Virus record (IMG/VR): IMGVR_UViG_2663763326_000007
DNA from: a virus
Taxonomy: Duplodnaviria > Heunggongvirae > Uroviricota > Caudoviricetes
DNA: 43,062 bases
Direction: 5' to 3' (one strand)
Shown here in pieces: positions 21,321 through 35,832 of the stretch (position 1 is the first letter of the stretch; each line of letters opens with the position of its first letter). The position numbers were made by a program, and so were the translations under genes. The notes under the pieces were generated by a model. The model was given only the letters and a program-made list of their open reading frames with translations. It searched no databases and was not told the DNA's origin.

Positions 21321-21347
21321 AAACGACAAAACCCCGCCGTGGCGAGG
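21321..21347 (-). terminator. tR'-like intrinsic terminator in the late-gene leader
   Basis: Minus-strand RNA folds as CCUCGC-CACG-GCGGGG (one G-U pair) followed by UUUUGUCGUUU, about 40 nt downstream of the promoter and just before the holin start. Confidence 0.5.
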
Positions 21348-21383
21348 TTCTTAGAAATTTGGCAACATACCAAATTAGCGTCA

Positions 21384-21415: not shown

Positions 21416-22087
21416 TTATACGCAAACGTCGTCTAAATGGTTCTGATAATGATGCAAAGTTGCAAGAAGTGCCACTTCATCAAGTGCTCTCACCGCCTCT
21501 TTCATTCCTACCCAGTGCAGGGAGTATGTTTCGCACCAGGTGGAACGAGAAACCGACAGCATTCCTGCTAGGGTAGATCCGGCCATCTCCTTAAAATCCT
21601 CGCGTTTATTTGCTGCTGCGACCGCCTGCACGGACAACCACACCAACGAAAGCAGGCGCTTAACTACTTTTCTCTGAGTTGACGCGGGGATGTTTCCTTT
21701 ATAGCGACTCCAGACAGCCTCACAAATAGCTGTTTGGTGTTTGAATGCCAGGTTACCACCGTAGCAATAACGCAACCACGCTTGCTGACTTGCATCCAGC
21801 GAGTTCACAGAACGCCGCCAGGATGAATCAGCAAATTCAAAATCACTCATCGGCGGCGCGGGGCGACGTCTGCTGAAACTTTCCAGAGCGTAAACTGGCG
21901 TAACCAGAGCATCAACGGTCCGGTCCTCCAGCTGCACACGGTGAATATGTTTGCGTGGGTATGCGTTTTTGTCTGCCGGTGGGTGCTCACACAATGCTTC
22001 CAGTTGCCCCTTAGAACCACCAGACAAATCCCGCAATGCAGCGCGCAGTTTTATGCGGGTATATTCCAATAAATACTCGTTACTCAT
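21416..22087 (-). CDS. Putative late-gene antiterminator (Q-like)
   Basis: 223-aa ORF immediately upstream of the promoter-terminator pair and lysis genes, the lambdoid Q position; family assignment tentative. Confidence 0.5.
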   Translation of the reverse strand: MSNEYLLEYTRIKLRAALRDLSGGSKGQLEALCEHPPADKNAYPRKHIHRVQLEDRTVDALVTPVYALESFSRRRPAPPMSDFEFADSSWRRSVNSLDASQQAWLRYCYGGNLAFKHQTAICEAVWSRYKGNIPASTQRKVVKRLLSLVWLSVQAVAAANKREDFKEMAGSTLAGMLSVSRSTWCETYSLHWVGMKEAVRALDEVALLATLHHYQNHLDDVCV

Positions 22088-22380
22088 CAGATAAACTCCT
22101 CATCGCGCCAGATAGCCAGTGTTCTGAAAACTCCCTCAGCGTGCATCAACAACAATGAGTCGTGCTCGTAATCCGTTTTTGTACGTCCGTCGATGGCATC
22201 GTGACACGCACTGCAGGCGATAGCGCCCTGCATATCGTGAGGTTTGATGGCTGTGCCGCACGTTCCGGCGAGACGATAATGAGCCAGTACGCTGGTTTCA
22301 GGATTGTGATTGCACACACCGGGGATACGCACAGTACAAGCGCGACTGCGTGCAGCTTTTCTCAGGTCGATTTTTTTCAT
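22087..22380 (-). CDS. Nin-region protein, Cys/His-rich (DUF1364 / YbcO-like putative nuclease)
   Basis: 97 aa with ..CTVRIPGVCNHNPETSVLAHYR..CSACHDAIDG..; sits just upstream of the Q-like gene as in DLP12-type prophages. Confidence 0.45.
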   Translation of the reverse strand: MKKIDLRKAARSRACTVRIPGVCNHNPETSVLAHYRLAGTCGTAIKPHDMQGAIACSACHDAIDGRTKTDYEHDSLLLMHAEGVFRTLAIWRDEEFI

Positions 22381-22973
22381 GATGTGTAATCCAGCAGCTG
22401 CGCGGCGGCATTTTCAGCGGCCTCCTGAGAGGCAAATGTGCGGAACAAAATATAATTCCACAGCACATCTAAAACGGCTGAATACAGTTGACCGAACTCA
22501 AGATCGTCCATCGCTGCAAACGAGATTGAACGAGGTACGCGCATCAAACTGCCGTCTGGCATCTGATGAACGTCATAAAACCCAGCTTCCATAATCGCCC
22601 ATGCGCGAAACGCCTCGAACGACTTCACCGCACTGATACTCCCCGCGCGCTTTTCCGACTCATCGAGAAGATACTGATCAGCCAGCTCTGCCATGACATC
22701 ACCGTGTCCACCGTAATACGCCAGTAACTTAACGTAGCCGTGAACCAGTTCGCGCTCCGCAGGAGAAATAGCCCCTCCGGACGGATGCCAGTAATCAAAG
22801 CCCAGGTTGAGAAGTGAGAAAAATTTACGATGAAACGCGGGATTACGCGCCTGTTTGAAATCTGCATACACAACAGCACCTGGTTTGACTCGTTCAGTCA
22901 ACCAGCGTTGCGTGTCTGGTGTCGCGGGTATTAGCGAACCGCCGGATACCCTGATAAATGAATGCTGCGCCAT
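22377..22973 (-). CDS. Conserved phage protein of the nin-like region
   Basis: 198-aa ORF overlapping the next gene by 4 bp (operon coupling). Confidence 0.4.
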   Translation of the reverse strand: MAQHSFIRVSGGSLIPATPDTQRWLTERVKPGAVVYADFKQARNPAFHRKFFSLLNLGFDYWHPSGGAISPAERELVHGYVKLLAYYGGHGDVMAELADQYLLDESEKRAGSISAVKSFEAFRAWAIMEAGFYDVHQMPDGSLMRVPRSISFAAMDDLEFGQLYSAVLDVLWNYILFRTFASQEAAENAAAQLLDYTS

Positions 22974-23050
22974 GGTTAACTCCAGGTGGCGCGGCAGTGT
23001 TCAGAAAATGATGCCGGGTGTTCAATCCAGCACCGATATTATACCGTGTT

Positions 23051-23230
23051 TTACGCGTCAGGGGGTGTAATAGTATATCCAGCTATTTCTGCCAACTCGA
23101 GAAACGCCATCAGGCTGGCAATCCGCTCATCATCGGTCAGAACACGCACACCAACGATGTGTCCGTCCTTACGCTTGATAACAGCCCGGCATGTTTCCGG
23201 TAGTTCGCCTATAGATTCTTGAATATTCAT
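23051..23230 (-). CDS. Small 59-aa protein behind a LexA-box promoter (candidate SOS-inducible antirepressor or induction factor)
   Basis: ATG at 23228..23230 (MNIQESIGELPETCRAVIKRKDGHIVGVRVLTDDERIASLMAFLELAEIAGYTITPPDA) preceded by GGGGGAAG; promoter and LexA box directly upstream. Confidence 0.5.
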   Translation of the reverse strand: MNIQESIGELPETCRAVIKRKDGHIVGVRVLTDDERIASLMAFLELAEIAGYTITPPDA

Positions 23231-23249
23231 GTCTTCCCCCAATGCCACA

Positions 23250-23269
23250 ACCTGTATATTTATACAGTA
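23250..23269 (-). promoter_or_regulatory. LexA (SOS) box overlapping the -10 of a sigma70-like promoter
   Basis: ACCTGTATATTTATACAGTA has the CTGT-N8-ACAG core with an AT-rich spacer, 3 mismatches to TACTGTATATATATACAGTA; minus strand has -35 ATGACA, 17 bp, -10 TATAAA inside the box, 22 bp before the ATG. Confidence 0.7.
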
Positions 23270-23343
23270 TTTTATGGCATTTGTCATAACGCCAAATACA
23301 ATGAGGGAATAATGAACAATTATATTCACGTCGTGAATTTTAT

Positions 23344-23374
23344 TAAACGGTTTTATAGGGGATTAAACCGTTTA
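23344..23374. repeat. Perfect 10-bp inverted repeat (hairpin) between the upstream gene and the LexA-controlled promoter
   Basis: TAAACGGTTT-(10 nt)-AAACCGTTTA starting 7 bp after the stop of the 23381..24022 gene. Confidence 0.35.
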
Positions 23375-23380
23375 TGGTCA

Positions 23381-24022
23381 TTATTTATCACTCCTGTAAA
23401 TTGGAATTAACCATTTTCTAATCGTCGACGCTGCAGGTGGGTCAGAGTATTTCGCCACAAAAATACCGGATATGTATTGCACGCCACGCGATAATGGCGC
23501 TGTCGGGTTTTCAGTAAAAAAACGATCAGCCAGTTCAATGGCTTCGCTTTTTAATCTGTGCTGTGGTCGTCCTCCGCCCTTTGTTCCCAGGTATCGCGCC
23601 AGTTGTTTGAAACGGTAGGCGATGATTAACGGTCGCATCATCATATTGAAAAAATCGCGGGCATCGTTGTCAGCGCCTTGCGCTATCAACAGTGCAAAAA
23701 ACAGATACGGGATTATGTACACTTCAGGAGATATACGAACCCGTTCACAAGTTGGTGGAGCCAACTCAATAAGTAAGTCAGCCAGCGGATTCCCCTTTTC
23801 TCCACGTTTGTAATAGCGATACAGCGGCCCGATATCAAGTTCACTCACGTCGATTTCAGGATGCCCGGCAACGACTGTACGTATCTCTTCTGCCAGAGCG
23901 TCAAATATTGCCCCGGTCCGTTCAAGATAGAGCCTCCGGGTCGAACCGCGATCATCCAACGCCCGTAACATATCTAACCGGCTAACGAAAGTTTCAGGCC
24001 AGTCCTCATAGAAGGTTTTCAT
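23381..24022 (-). CDS. Hypothetical protein (about 213 aa), accessory gene
   Basis: Start set at the internal ATG 24020..24022 (MKTFYEDWPETF..) preceded by GAGGT; no family recognised. Confidence 0.45.
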   Translation of the reverse strand: MKTFYEDWPETFVSRLDMLRALDDRGSTRRLYLERTGAIFDALAEEIRTVVAGHPEIDVSELDIGPLYRYYKRGEKGNPLADLLIELAPPTCERVRISPEVYIIPYLFFALLIAQGADNDARDFFNMMMRPLIIAYRFKQLARYLGTKGGGRPQHRLKSEAIELADRFFTENPTAPLSRGVQYISGIFVAKYSDPPAASTIRKWLIPIYRSDK

Positions 24023-24265
24023 AATTACCTCGAATAATAAAAACTGCACTATTTGCACAATTTATTATTCGTTTTCACGCCGCTGAGTTCTATAAAAAAG
24101 AAAAAACCTCCGAGGCAGGGTTTTGTTATGGCTCGTTAAATCATCATCCAACTTTTTAGACTGAACGGTGATACTTGCAAATATTTGAAAATATGGGCTG
24201 GAACCCTATCTTATGATGTGCCTGGTAATTTATATTGTTGGGTCTTTATATCATGAGGAATCACT

Positions 24266-24499
24266 ATGGGTACGTTAGGCAACCAGCCGTGCAGAAGTCG
24301 TTATGAGTTCGATGATTTTAATTTAGCCAATCGAGCTGCGGCTCTTACTAAGTTAGCAAAAGAAACTGGTGTATCGGTGGATACCTTAATCAAACTTGAA
24401 ATTGCTATGCAACTGAATCGGCTCAACTCCATCCTTATCGAAAACGGTGACAAGATGGACGAGAATCTGGCAGGTATTGGCGAGATACTGCAGAAGTGA
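24266..24499 (+). CDS. Hypothetical small protein (77 aa), possibly helix-turn-helix
   Basis: GAGGAA before the ATG; ..AALTKLAKETGVSVDTLIKLEIA.. looks like a helix-turn-helix; followed by a hairpin. Confidence 0.4.
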   Translation: MGTLGNQPCRSRYEFDDFNLANRAAALTKLAKETGVSVDTLIKLEIAMQLNRLNSILIENGDKMDENLAGIGEILQK

Positions 24500-24505
24500 G
24501 AGTAG

Positions 24506-24535
24506 CCCCTCTTCTGAGGGGTTGCACATTTAAAA
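24506..24535 (+). terminator. Putative intrinsic terminator
   Basis: CCCCTC-TTCT-GAGGGG stem-loop 7 bp after the stop codon, followed by TTGCACATTTAAAATATT. Confidence 0.4.
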
Positions 24536-24897
24536 TATTAAGGGCGGTCTTCTTCACGTACACAGTCACCTGGTCGAATCGTTCACGCATACTGAGTACA
24601 AAAAATCTCAACGATAAGATCAGGTTAGACCTGTATTTTCCAGAAACATATAGACGCCTAAAAAAACACTAAACTCATGATTATCATGTATGTTTTTACT
24701 GGAAACATTGAACCATCCACAATACAGCGTAAAAAGCAAGCAATTCACAAGATTTTAAAGTGATTTATCTGGAAGACTTTACTACTAACAGTTAATATCG
24801 TACCAGAAGTGCAGAATTTGCACTTTTACAGGAATGTGGTACGGAACATGCTGTCTATATTTCAACCAATAATCGTAATGCAGTAACTGGAGGAGCT

Positions 24898-25386
24898 ATG
24901 GCTACCAACCCAAGAGAGCACGCCCGGCGAGTGCTGGACACGTTCTGGTGCGGGCGTGGTTTCCCTGTTGATCCAGCGAAAATTGCTCACGACATGGGAT
25001 TAGATGTTTTTATTACCGATCTTCCTGGGAAAGTTTCTGGCGCACTGATTAAACAAAAAGATCAAGATCCAGCGATCTTTCTAAACAGTGATGACAACAA
25101 AGTTCGTCAACGTTTTTCATGTGGGCATGAGTTGGGGCATTACATCGCCCGGCAAGCATCGCATAGCGATGAATATGAGTACGTTGATTTACGTGGCGAA
25201 ACCGCAAGCGCCGGAACGCATCCTGATGAAATTTTTGCAAACAAGTTCGCAGCAGAACTTCTGATGCCGGTAGATGAGGTCAGAAAACTGCACGCTGACG
25301 GTCAACCAAGTTATATAATGGCGCATTATTTTGGCGTATCTGACGATGCGATGACTTATCGTTTAAAGAACTTGAGGTTGGGGTAA
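24898..25386 (+). CDS. ImmA/IrrE-family zinc metallopeptidase (M78-like), stand-alone peptidase domain
   Basis: HEXXH motif in ..FSCGHELGHYI.. and a downstream Glu in ..NKFAAELLMP..; GGAGGAG ribosome-binding sequence. Confidence 0.7.
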   Translation: MATNPREHARRVLDTFWCGRGFPVDPAKIAHDMGLDVFITDLPGKVSGALIKQKDQDPAIFLNSDDNKVRQRFSCGHELGHYIARQASHSDEYEYVDLRGETASAGTHPDEIFANKFAAELLMPVDEVRKLHADGQPSYIMAHYFGVSDDAMTYRLKNLRLG

Positions 25387-25395
25387 CGCTTTAAA

Positions 25396-26001
25396 ATGCC
25401 ATCGGATGACGATTTTAACAGCCGTTTCAAACAGGAAGTAGCACGCAGACTGAAGGATTCCCTCAACCTACACCGTCAGTTAGCAGAAGAGGTTGAGCCG
25501 GAGGACGATGAAACTCCGGTTCAGTCTCCTGACGAAGCTTCACCTCAGCCAAAGGTTTCGCACGCCCCCAAAAAAACGGCTGTCCGTATTCGCGGAATAG
25601 CCAGAAAAAGAGCTGCCGAAGCTCGCAAAATGGCTGTAGCTGCGTCTAGCAAAAGAATTCCAACTGCTACACCCTCTCAACAAGTCACCCGTACTGAGAG
25701 TAAAATCTTGACCGAGTTCACATCTGTGAAACAGGTGAATTCACTTGATACCGAGCATGAGCGCAAACAACTCAACAACAAAGATTTTGAAGCAGAAATC
25801 GCTCTAAAAAAACGATACGGGAAATGGTTCCTGATTATCCTTGCTTTCCAACTTCTGATAATGAATGGTGTATTTATTGCCGACGGCGCAGGTAAGCTGG
25901 AATTTGAGGATTTAACACTACAGTTGTACATGGGCGGTACTTTGACAGAGGTATTCGGCCTCGTGCTGGTCGTGACAAAATACCTTTTTAAACGCAAGTA
26001 A
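25396..26001 (+). CDS. Membrane protein with charged, low-complexity N-terminal region and two C-terminal transmembrane helices
   Basis: Starts 10 bp after the peptidase stop; hydrophobic segments ..WFLIILAFQLLIMNGVFIA.. and ..GGTLTEVFGLVLVVTKYLF.. Confidence 0.55.
   Translation: MPSDDDFNSRFKQEVARRLKDSLNLHRQLAEEVEPEDDETPVQSPDEASPQPKVSHAPKKTAVRIRGIARKRAAEARKMAVAASSKRIPTATPSQQVTRTESKILTEFTSVKQVNSLDTEHERKQLNNKDFEAEIALKKRYGKWFLIILAFQLLIMNGVFIADGAGKLEFEDLTLQLYMGGTLTEVFGLVLVVTKYLFKRK
25930..26001 (+). repeat. 72-bp direct repeat, copy 1 (3' end of the membrane-protein gene)
   Basis: ATGGGCGGTACTTTGACAGAGGTATTCGG..CGCAAGTAA recurs at 29352..29423 with about 6 mismatches. Confidence 0.85.
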
Positions 26002-35356: not shown

Positions 35357-35418
35357 TAACTGTAATTACAAATTATATTTGCAATGCTCCCTACAATTAA
35401 ACCTTGTATCCTTACGGT
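35357..35418. promoter_or_regulatory. Divergent promoter/operator region (OR-like)
   Basis: Inverted repeats ATTACA-N8-TGTAAT and TTACAA-N7-TTGCAA between the divergent genes; a similar TTACAA-N7-TTGTAA repeat lies just past the repressor gene near 35965..35985. Confidence 0.4.
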
Positions 35419-35832
35419 ATGAACACAAAAACGAAAAACATGGCTTTTGCTAGCCGACTACAACGGATTCTAAAAGACTTAGGCTGGTCTCAATCTGAGT
35501 TAGCTCGCCATATTGGGGTTACGGCTCAATCAGTTCAGGCATGGTGTAATGGGGTAACTCCAAGAAAAGATAAATTAGACAAGCTAGCAAAAGTGACCGG
35601 ATACCCTGTTCATTTTTTCTTCATGAATGAAGGGGAATATTTGGATGAATCCACACTACACCCGGGTAATTACAATCAAGAACTAACCCCGCAAGAACAG
35701 GCTCTACTGCAACTATTCAGAGGACTGCCTGAGAGCGAAAAAAATAAATTAATCAATGAGCTAAAAGAAAAAAGAGAGCACTTCGATCTACTGCTAAAAG
35801 AACTACTTGAAGCCAAAAACCAGACAAAATAG
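35419..35832 (+). CDS. CI-like repressor (XRE-family helix-turn-helix), no LexA-like S24 peptidase domain
   Basis: ..LGWSQSELARHIGVTAQSVQAWCNG.. is a classic XRE helix-turn-helix; start uncertain (no ribosome-binding sequence, possibly leaderless). Confidence 0.65.
   Translation: MNTKTKNMAFASRLQRILKDLGWSQSELARHIGVTAQSVQAWCNGVTPRKDKLDKLAKVTGYPVHFFFMNEGEYLDESTLHPGNYNQELTPQEQALLQLFRGLPESEKNKLINELKEKREHFDLLLKELLEAKNQTK

Follow-up and report, generated by a model that had tools for sequence, protein, structure and literature searches.

The window, the whole 43,062-nt stretch of tailed-phage DNA in IMG/VR record IMGVR_UViG_2663763326_000007, carries a gene for a 59-amino-acid protein that is preceded by a predicted LexA (SOS) box (Table 1). 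The segment around this gene (positions 22900 to 23500) is 99.8% identical to chromosomes of Escherichia coli ST131 (EC958, JJ1886, and others). It is present in 445 of 5,426 complete E. coli genomes (~8%), always on the chromosome and mostly in the pandemic ST131 lineage, and it occupies 25 extra places beyond one per genome. The segment also occurs in the phage record vB_EcoM-705R4; the only paper naming this phage is a study of CRISPR-Cas diversity.

In the RefSeq annotation of EC958, a lambdoid prophage lies at this site, with most of its genes on the minus strand of the window. Its order is integrase, insertion sequence (IS) element, immunity region (HTH repressor, Cro/YdaS-like protein, and YdaT), replication genes (DnaB), an accessory block, the 59-aa locus, DUF1367, DUF1364/YbcO, the antiterminator gene Q, lysis genes, head genes, and a P2-like baseplate. 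The IS element belongs to the IS3 family (HTH orfA and rve orfB) and sits just before the integrase gene. Directly upstream of the 59-aa locus, in the same orientation, is a gene for a 225-aa protein of phrog_5215 with no Pfam match; it is kept beside the locus in the E. coli relatives (loci L008 to L013) and is absent from the Enterobacter and Serratia versions.

The box, ACCTGTATATTTATACAGTA, has three mismatches to the consensus TACTGTATATATATACAGTA. The sequence-only reading of this DNA had described it as near consensus, and this held up: it is the window's sole match at three or fewer mismatches, and none of 100 dinucleotide-preserving shuffles gave any. The bare CTGT-N8-ACAG core is expected 0.34 times per window and was found in 25% of the shuffles, so the significance of the site rests on the whole 20-mer and not on the bare core. 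Scored with a LexA matrix that was made from 26 E. coli boxes and whose absolute values are indicative only, the box has a heterology index of 3.13; this falls in the range of strong SOS boxes and is the best in the window, the next site scoring 7.5. The window's second-ranking LexA-like site, AGCTGTATTTGTCTCCAGTA, lies inside the IS3-family orfB. It is identical to the box of E. coli K-12 dinS, and its heterology score is thus biased by the training list of the matrix.

The box overlaps the −10 element of a putative sigma-70 promoter in front of the 59-aa open reading frame (ORF), which has its own ribosome-binding site, as had been proposed from the sequence; the −10 falls within the box. 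The earlier placement of the box ahead of the ORF also stands, and only the distance, given then as 22 bp, was approximate: 19 nt separate the end of the box from the ATG. Across the E. coli loci L008 to L012, the −35 element and the box are invariant and the spacer and 5′ untranslated region vary, while the GGGGGA of the Shine-Dalgarno sequence is conserved in homologous loci. An automatic promoter scan missed this ATGACA-17-TATAAA element because its −10 lacks the final T. The next plus-strand gene is ~1 kb away, past a minus-strand ORF; the box can serve no plus-strand gene.

The scan did report a second promoter-like element farther upstream, TTAATA-16-TATAAT, which matches 10 of 12 consensus positions and is conserved in L008 to L012; promoter-like elements in this region are no more numerous than in shuffles. 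Transcripts starting there would have to cross the LexA box, and the element might give LexA-independent transcription. A hairpin at ~23333 to 23374 folds well (z = −4.3) but has no U tract. We considered it as an insulating terminator of the Gifsy kind and set this aside as unproven, since its arms appear in relatives as direct repeats of a palindromic 9-mer, AAACNGTTT. Two copies of this 9-mer, each followed by AAT, stand 20 nt apart just upstream of the promoter region, and the window has five such sites against 1.2 expected; they are kept as repeats in L008 to L012. We considered the 9-mer as a phage repressor operator, which it probably is not, as the immunity region contains no copy.

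Downstream, the next gene in the same orientation encodes a DUF1367 protein that is 56% identical to Gifsy-2 STM1020, followed by YbcO and Q. The start and stop codons of these three genes overlap, and scans for terminators gave no strong candidate from the LexA promoter through the end of Q, so SOS induction might raise Q as well. No dinI homolog was detected anywhere in the window (best tblastn E value, 0.3).

Table 1. Features of the window that bear on the 59-aa locus and on prophage induction
Feature	Coordinates	Strand	Basis or remark
Rem/GfoA/FsoA-family gene, 59 aa	23051-23230	−	ATG at 23230, stop at 23051; RefSeq WP_001025459.1, "hypothetical protein"
Shine-Dalgarno sequence GGGGGAAG	23233-23240	−	2 nt before ATG; read from sequence
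Predicted LexA (SOS) box	23250-23269	−	minus-strand letters TACTGTATAAATATACAGGT; given in the window as ACCTGTATATTTATACAGTA
Putative sigma-70 promoter	23259-23287	−	−35 ATGACA (23287-23282), 17-nt spacer, −10 TATAAA (23264-23259); read from sequence
Second promoter-like element	23319-23346	−	TTAATA-16-TATAAT; automatic promoter scan
Palindromic 9-mer, two copies	23345-23353 and 23365-23373		
225-aa protein gene	23381-24058	−	phrog_5215
DUF1367 gene, Gifsy irsA homolog	22377-22973	−	Pfam DUF1367, E = 6e-78
YbcO/DUF1364 gene	22087-22380	−	Pfam
Antiterminator Q gene	21416-22087	−	Pfam
Strong intrinsic terminator, tR′-like	21328-21351	−	just after Q; 10-bp stem, then T run
ImmA/IrrE block	24266-26001	+	M78 metallopeptidase gene at 24898-25386
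ORF6N-domain protein gene, 278 aa	29448-30284	−	
Prophage repressor, short GfoR/GftR/DicA type	35404-35832	+	Pfam HTH_3 only
IS3-family insertion sequence	40492-41861		
Second-best LexA-like site	41422-41441		

The 59-aa protein and its family

The sequence-only reading saw no resemblance between the 59-aa protein and anything familiar and suggested that it might represent an undescribed class. This is not so. Although no Pfam domain was found in it, the protein matches phrog_340 of the PHROGs collection (E = 1.6e-20), and the same family takes in a GfoA-like protein (7.6e-21), FsoA (1.1e-26), and Rem of E. coli K-12 (4.4e-21). BLASTP aligned it with the GfoA-like protein at an E value of 6e-10 and with FsoA at 3e-8, identity to GfoA/FsoA being ~33 to 41%, and in a six-frame translation of the window the GfoA-like query matches this ORF only. 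Pairwise alignment with K-12 Rem detected no similarity; hhalign comparison of the family profile (A1) gave 97.3% probability against GfoA (E = 2e-11) and 89% against Rem (E = 2e-6). In a precomputed Pfam field, PF27490 (Rem) is absent for the protein's cluster and for relatives that are 75% identical, and it is marked only "weak" or "faint" in relatives at ~40% identity.

We identified the FsoA and GfoA sequences through the tagging and cloning primers listed in Table S1 of Lemire 2011 (PMC3121763). A tblastn search gave weak matches to STM0898.2n, an ORF of Fels-1, and to ORFs of the phages SEN34 and mEp237. Translation of the fsoA primers yields MNSQQMM... and ...EAGIRFEEISNVG, the exact ends of STM0898.2n; the gfoA primers encode MSNSALQK... 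and ...RRLGYRVTPPSDI, and the 3′ primer is a 97% match to SEN34 gp55 and mEp237 gp49. These primer ends establish the weak matches as FsoA and near-identical copies of GfoA. Exhaustive searches returned a family of ~60- to 85-aa proteins from enterobacterial prophages with the common core LP..GRVV....NG.V...R.L.DDEHIA.L..F.ELA..AGY. By sequence comparison, the 59-aa protein is a member of this known family of small antirepressors, GfoA/FsoA/Rem; WP_001025459 is mentioned in no paper of the literature that we searched. We also considered GftA as a direct relative and rejected it, its similarity being marginal: it belongs to phrog_4847 rather than phrog_340, and hhalign against the window family gave an E value of 0.005 and a probability of 7%.

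An AlphaFold model (36-sequence alignment; pLDDT, 89.4) predicts a compact fold of a helix (residues 3 to 8), a beta-hairpin (15 to 31), and a second helix (40 to 49), the C-terminal AGYTITPP tail being extended. A profile search of PDB sequences returned chance matches only (e.g., RNF4), and a Foldseek search of the PDB with the model returned nothing at an E value below 0.8, so that no solved relative of the fold was found in that database.

The repressor and the box in related prophages

The repressor of this prophage had been described as lacking an S24 autocleavage domain, and the Pfam search confirmed this, HTH_3 being its sole Pfam domain. Over its full length, it is 33% identical to GftR (E = 6e-23), the identical repressor of LT2 Gifsy-1 and Gifsy-2, and 32% identical to DicA (E = 1e-17). 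It is the presumed and most likely target of the 59-aa protein, being the repressor of the same prophage; this assignment is uncertain in that antirepressors of this family can act on noncognate repressors, as FsoA does on GftR.

The C termini of the window repressor (approximately residues 93 to 135), GftR, DicA, and the repressor of locus L020 share a motif, E..LL.LF..LPE.E/K, followed by a helical stretch. Repressors with this motif lie at 6864 to 7280 of locus L004, 6935 to 7342 of L018, and 240 to 605 of L020, in addition to the one in the window. The motif is shared even where the HTH parts differ (L020 matches at E = 3e-8 through the C terminus only) and is a candidate dimerization or antirepressor-docking surface.

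Among 79 IMG/VR loci that encode relatives of the 59-aa protein, 51 have an exact CTGT-N8-ACAG box in the 400 nt preceding the gene. Two occur in the other 204.7 kb of these loci, a density that predicts ~0.3 for the upstream regions. The half-sites are kept and the 8-nt spacers differ between lineages, which is the pattern expected of a selected LexA site. In the E. coli, Enterobacter, Serratia, and other contigs examined, the genes for relatives with identities of 76%, 58%, 40%, and 36% all have a box upstream, either 17 to 20 nt or 128 to 147 nt from the start codon. Boxes are likewise found upstream in Enterobacter, Serratia, and Edaphovirga contigs; in the Enterobacter loci, the upstream flank is unrelated and contains a canonical terminator.

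LexA control is, as far as these sequences indicate, not universal in the family. A LexA box was looked for upstream of rem in the Qin prophage of K-12, and none was found. Loci that lack a box group into separate sub-branches, and the gene there is often ~590 nt from the end of its contig, which parallels the location of FsoA in a left operon. In one such sub-branch, with members of ~60 aa (MIPIENLIKLLPSDG...; L038 to L044, L050, L052 to L069, and L089), the 400 nt ahead of the gene contain no box, which points to a version of the antirepressor under different regulation, possibly one of the left operon. In an E. coli contig (DBKRDK010000007.1; L009, approximately positions 2461 to 2480), the TA run of the box is 2 bp shorter through a deletion, which leaves CTGT-N6-ACAG. 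This variant should lose LexA binding, and constitutive antirepressor expression or residence in a defective prophage would be predicted for it. In Fels-1 (L002), a good LexA box (TACTGTAAATAAATACAGTG) occurs at positions 1329 to 1348, inside the annotated coding region of a CI-type repressor (1117 to 1812 of the locus).

A predicted SOS input to the prophage switch

The closest models for this arrangement are the Salmonella prophages, in which GfoA, GfhA, GftA, and FsoA induce by binding the prophage repressors, and in Gifsy-2 the antirepressor gene alone suffices for induction (PMC3121763). The Gifsy antirepressor-repressor complex behaves as A2B2. The proteins act across prophages: GfoA on the Gifsy-3 repressor and Fels-1 FsoA on the Gifsy-2 repressor (PMC3121763). 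The dinI operons of the Gifsy phages are induced 4.5- to 23-fold by nalidixic acid, and their boxes have heterology indices of 3.9 to 5.3 (PMC8072944). In Gifsy-1, -2, and -3, the box of dinI also lies 19 bp before the start. Gifsy-2 has the order terminator, LexA box, dinI, gftA, irsA homolog (STM1020), ninG, and Q; SEN34 and mEp237 share this gene order, with a gfoA-like gene as the antirepressor. In the window, the corresponding order is LexA box, 59-aa gene, DUF1367, YbcO, and Q.

The window protein resembles GfoA, GfhA, and FsoA in being a small single-domain phrog_340 protein whose partner is a short HTH repressor without an S24 domain and whose gene lies between the replication genes and irsA/DUF1367 plus Q. 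The distance of 19 nt from the end of the box to the first ATG of the operon is also that of GfoA. Unlike in the Gifsy phages, the antirepressor gene comes first after the LexA promoter, with no dinI in front; the protein has 59 residues where GfoA and FsoA have ~80, lacking their N-terminal ~20; and the host is E. coli ST131 rather than Salmonella. FsoA differs further in that its gene belongs to the left operon and has no dedicated LexA promoter. GftA is similar in operon position, LexA control, and kind of target, its repressor being the GftR compared above, and differs in its own protein family. Rem shares phrog_340, and its partner DicA resembles the window repressor, whereas the two antirepressors show no pairwise similarity and no LexA box precedes rem; for the window protein, the predicted signal is SOS. 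Rem relieves DicA repression 165-fold, and its inducing signal in Qin has been reported as unknown (PMC10448788).

The sequence-only reading had cited the Gifsy prophages and Tum of phage 186 as precedents. The Gifsy parallel holds, and Tum is a functional analog and not a relative. Tum and AntC of N15 are LexA-repressed antirepressors that inactivate a noncleavable repressor by binding it, and we detected no sequence relationship of the 59-aa protein to either one. The C-terminal half of Tum, a 146-aa protein, is DinI-like (PMC3121763); no such domain occurs in the 59-aa protein, nor any DinI similarity in the window. Large Ant-type proteins (P22 Ant and proteins with ORF6N/KilA-N and ANT domains) also work by binding repressors, while the 59-aa protein consists of the Rem-like domain alone, with no ORF6N, KilA-N, or ANT domain.

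We propose, with a probability of roughly 0.8, that the locus is the SOS input module of this ST131 lambdoid prophage, in which a LexA-repressed antirepressor would inactivate an uncleavable repressor of the DicA/GfoR type. In the undamaged cell, LexA would occupy the box over the −10 and start region of the promoter and keep the 59-aa gene silent. After DNA damage, activated RecA would bring about self-cleavage of LexA and the promoter would fire; the 59-aa protein would then accumulate and bind the DicA/GfoR-type repressor, the prophage's own and possibly related repressors of coresident prophages as well. The repressor would leave its operators uncleaved, opening the early promoters to lytic growth. 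We infer LexA binding, SOS inducibility, repressor binding, and the choice of target from homology. The proposal draws support from a box that is unique in the window, stronger than chance, placed over the −10, and spaced 19 nt from the ATG as in Gifsy; from the Gifsy-like synteny of a LexA promoter followed by a small antirepressor gene, irsA/DUF1367, and Q; from the recurrence of such boxes among relatives; and from a repressor homologous to both GftR and DicA, which are inactivated by antirepressors of this sort (PMC3121763, PMC10448788). The idea of a LexA-repressed antirepressor serving an uncleavable repressor, first drawn from the DNA alone, is in this way supported by homology, synteny, partner repressor, and box conservation.

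A variant of the proposal keeps the mechanism and makes it mainly trans-acting, the true target being a DicA/GfoR-type repressor of another prophage in the cell. The action of GfoA and FsoA on other prophages' repressors (PMC3121763) speaks for it, as do the several prophages per ST131 genome and the 25 extra places that the segment occupies; we consider it rather unlikely, because the prophage's own repressor is of exactly the type acted on, no other induction route for that repressor is evident, and a Rem-like gene and a short repressor co-occur in related loci (L020). The lack of a strong terminator up to the end of Q and the overlapping codons of DUF1367, YbcO, and Q would also fit a LexA promoter that mainly drives the nin/Q genes, so that SOS turns on the late antiterminator directly and the small ORF is accessory. 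This is improbable, given that the antirepressor gene alone is enough in Gifsy-2 (PMC3121763), that the box tracks the small gene even when the downstream genes differ (L019 has no DUF1367), and that Q without replication and early functions would not yield productive induction.

Induction might instead depend on the ORF6N Ant-like protein or on cleavage of the repressor by the ImmA/IrrE peptidase, with the 59-aa protein redundant or inactive. The ORF6N protein has matches among the PHROG antirepressor families and a Rem-like C terminus. For the peptidase, ICEBs1 and Deinococcus offer precedents of HTH repressors cleaved by ImmA/IrrE proteases. Neither gene has a LexA box, however, and the 59-aa gene is intact and conserved with its box retained; the peptidase gene, moreover, belongs to a moron-like block with no adjoining ImmR-like gene, 10 kb away from the repressor and on the opposite strand. 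We judge both routes improbable as replacements for the antirepressor, although either protein could also feed into induction beside it. The possibility of an SOS-controlled toxin, raised in the sequence-only reading, found no support. Small size combined with a LexA box recalls SOS-induced toxins or growth inhibitors such as TisB and HokE, which are small hydrophobic membrane peptides; the 59-aa protein is acidic (pI 4.7), has no hydrophobic segment (highest 19-residue hydropathy, 1.36), is predicted to form a soluble helix-hairpin-helix fold, and is homologous to proven antirepressors, all of which makes a toxin very improbable. That the box is a chance or relic sequence without function is hardly credible either: its bare core does appear in 25% of shuffled windows, but the full 20-mer appears in 0 of 100, and distant relatives have boxes with other spacers at the same position (51 of 79 loci, against 2 boxes in the other 205 kb).

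The antirepressor reading gives a likely function to a "hypothetical protein" of ~8% of complete E. coli genomes (445 of 5,426), mostly ST131, and predicts how the prophage senses DNA damage despite its uncleavable repressor. For the Rem family, in which the signal for Qin has been missing, the sequence points to SOS here and in many enterobacterial relatives. SOS-inducing antibiotics would be expected to induce the prophage and possibly coresident prophages with related repressors. The principle goes back to work on the Gifsy phages in 2011 (PMC3121763), and Rem, described in 2023 (PMC10448788), is a further known case of this kind of system. The type of switch is already understood and would not surprise a specialist; its identification here is useful for annotation and for predicting antibiotic-triggered induction. 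The departures from the described cases are the minimal 59-aa form, the E. coli ST131 host, and the co-occurrence of an Ant-like protein with the same domain.

This Ant-like protein is the 278-aa ORF6N-domain protein, which matches several PHROG antirepressor families and has no LexA box near its gene. Its residues ~213 to 254 are homologous to the 59-aa protein (phrog_340, E = 4.6e-12; BLASTP, E = 5e-7), and it is the best match in the window for K-12 Rem. The Rem-like module thus occurs twice in the prophage, once free and once fused. One could speculate that this fold of ~45 residues is a portable repressor-binding module, used free under LexA control and fused to ORF6N under another control, so that two signals would converge on one DicA-type repressor, with read-on from the LexA promoter into Q as an SOS feed-forward to the late genes and the ExxLLxLFxxLPExE C terminus of the repressor as the docking site; we hold this joint reading as tentative and doubtful as a whole.

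The ImmA/IrrE-family M78 metallopeptidase is flanked by conserved proteins of 77 and 201 aa. The block is transcribed against the phage early genes and adjoins no HTH repressor; it could be a defense or moron cassette, or another induction input.
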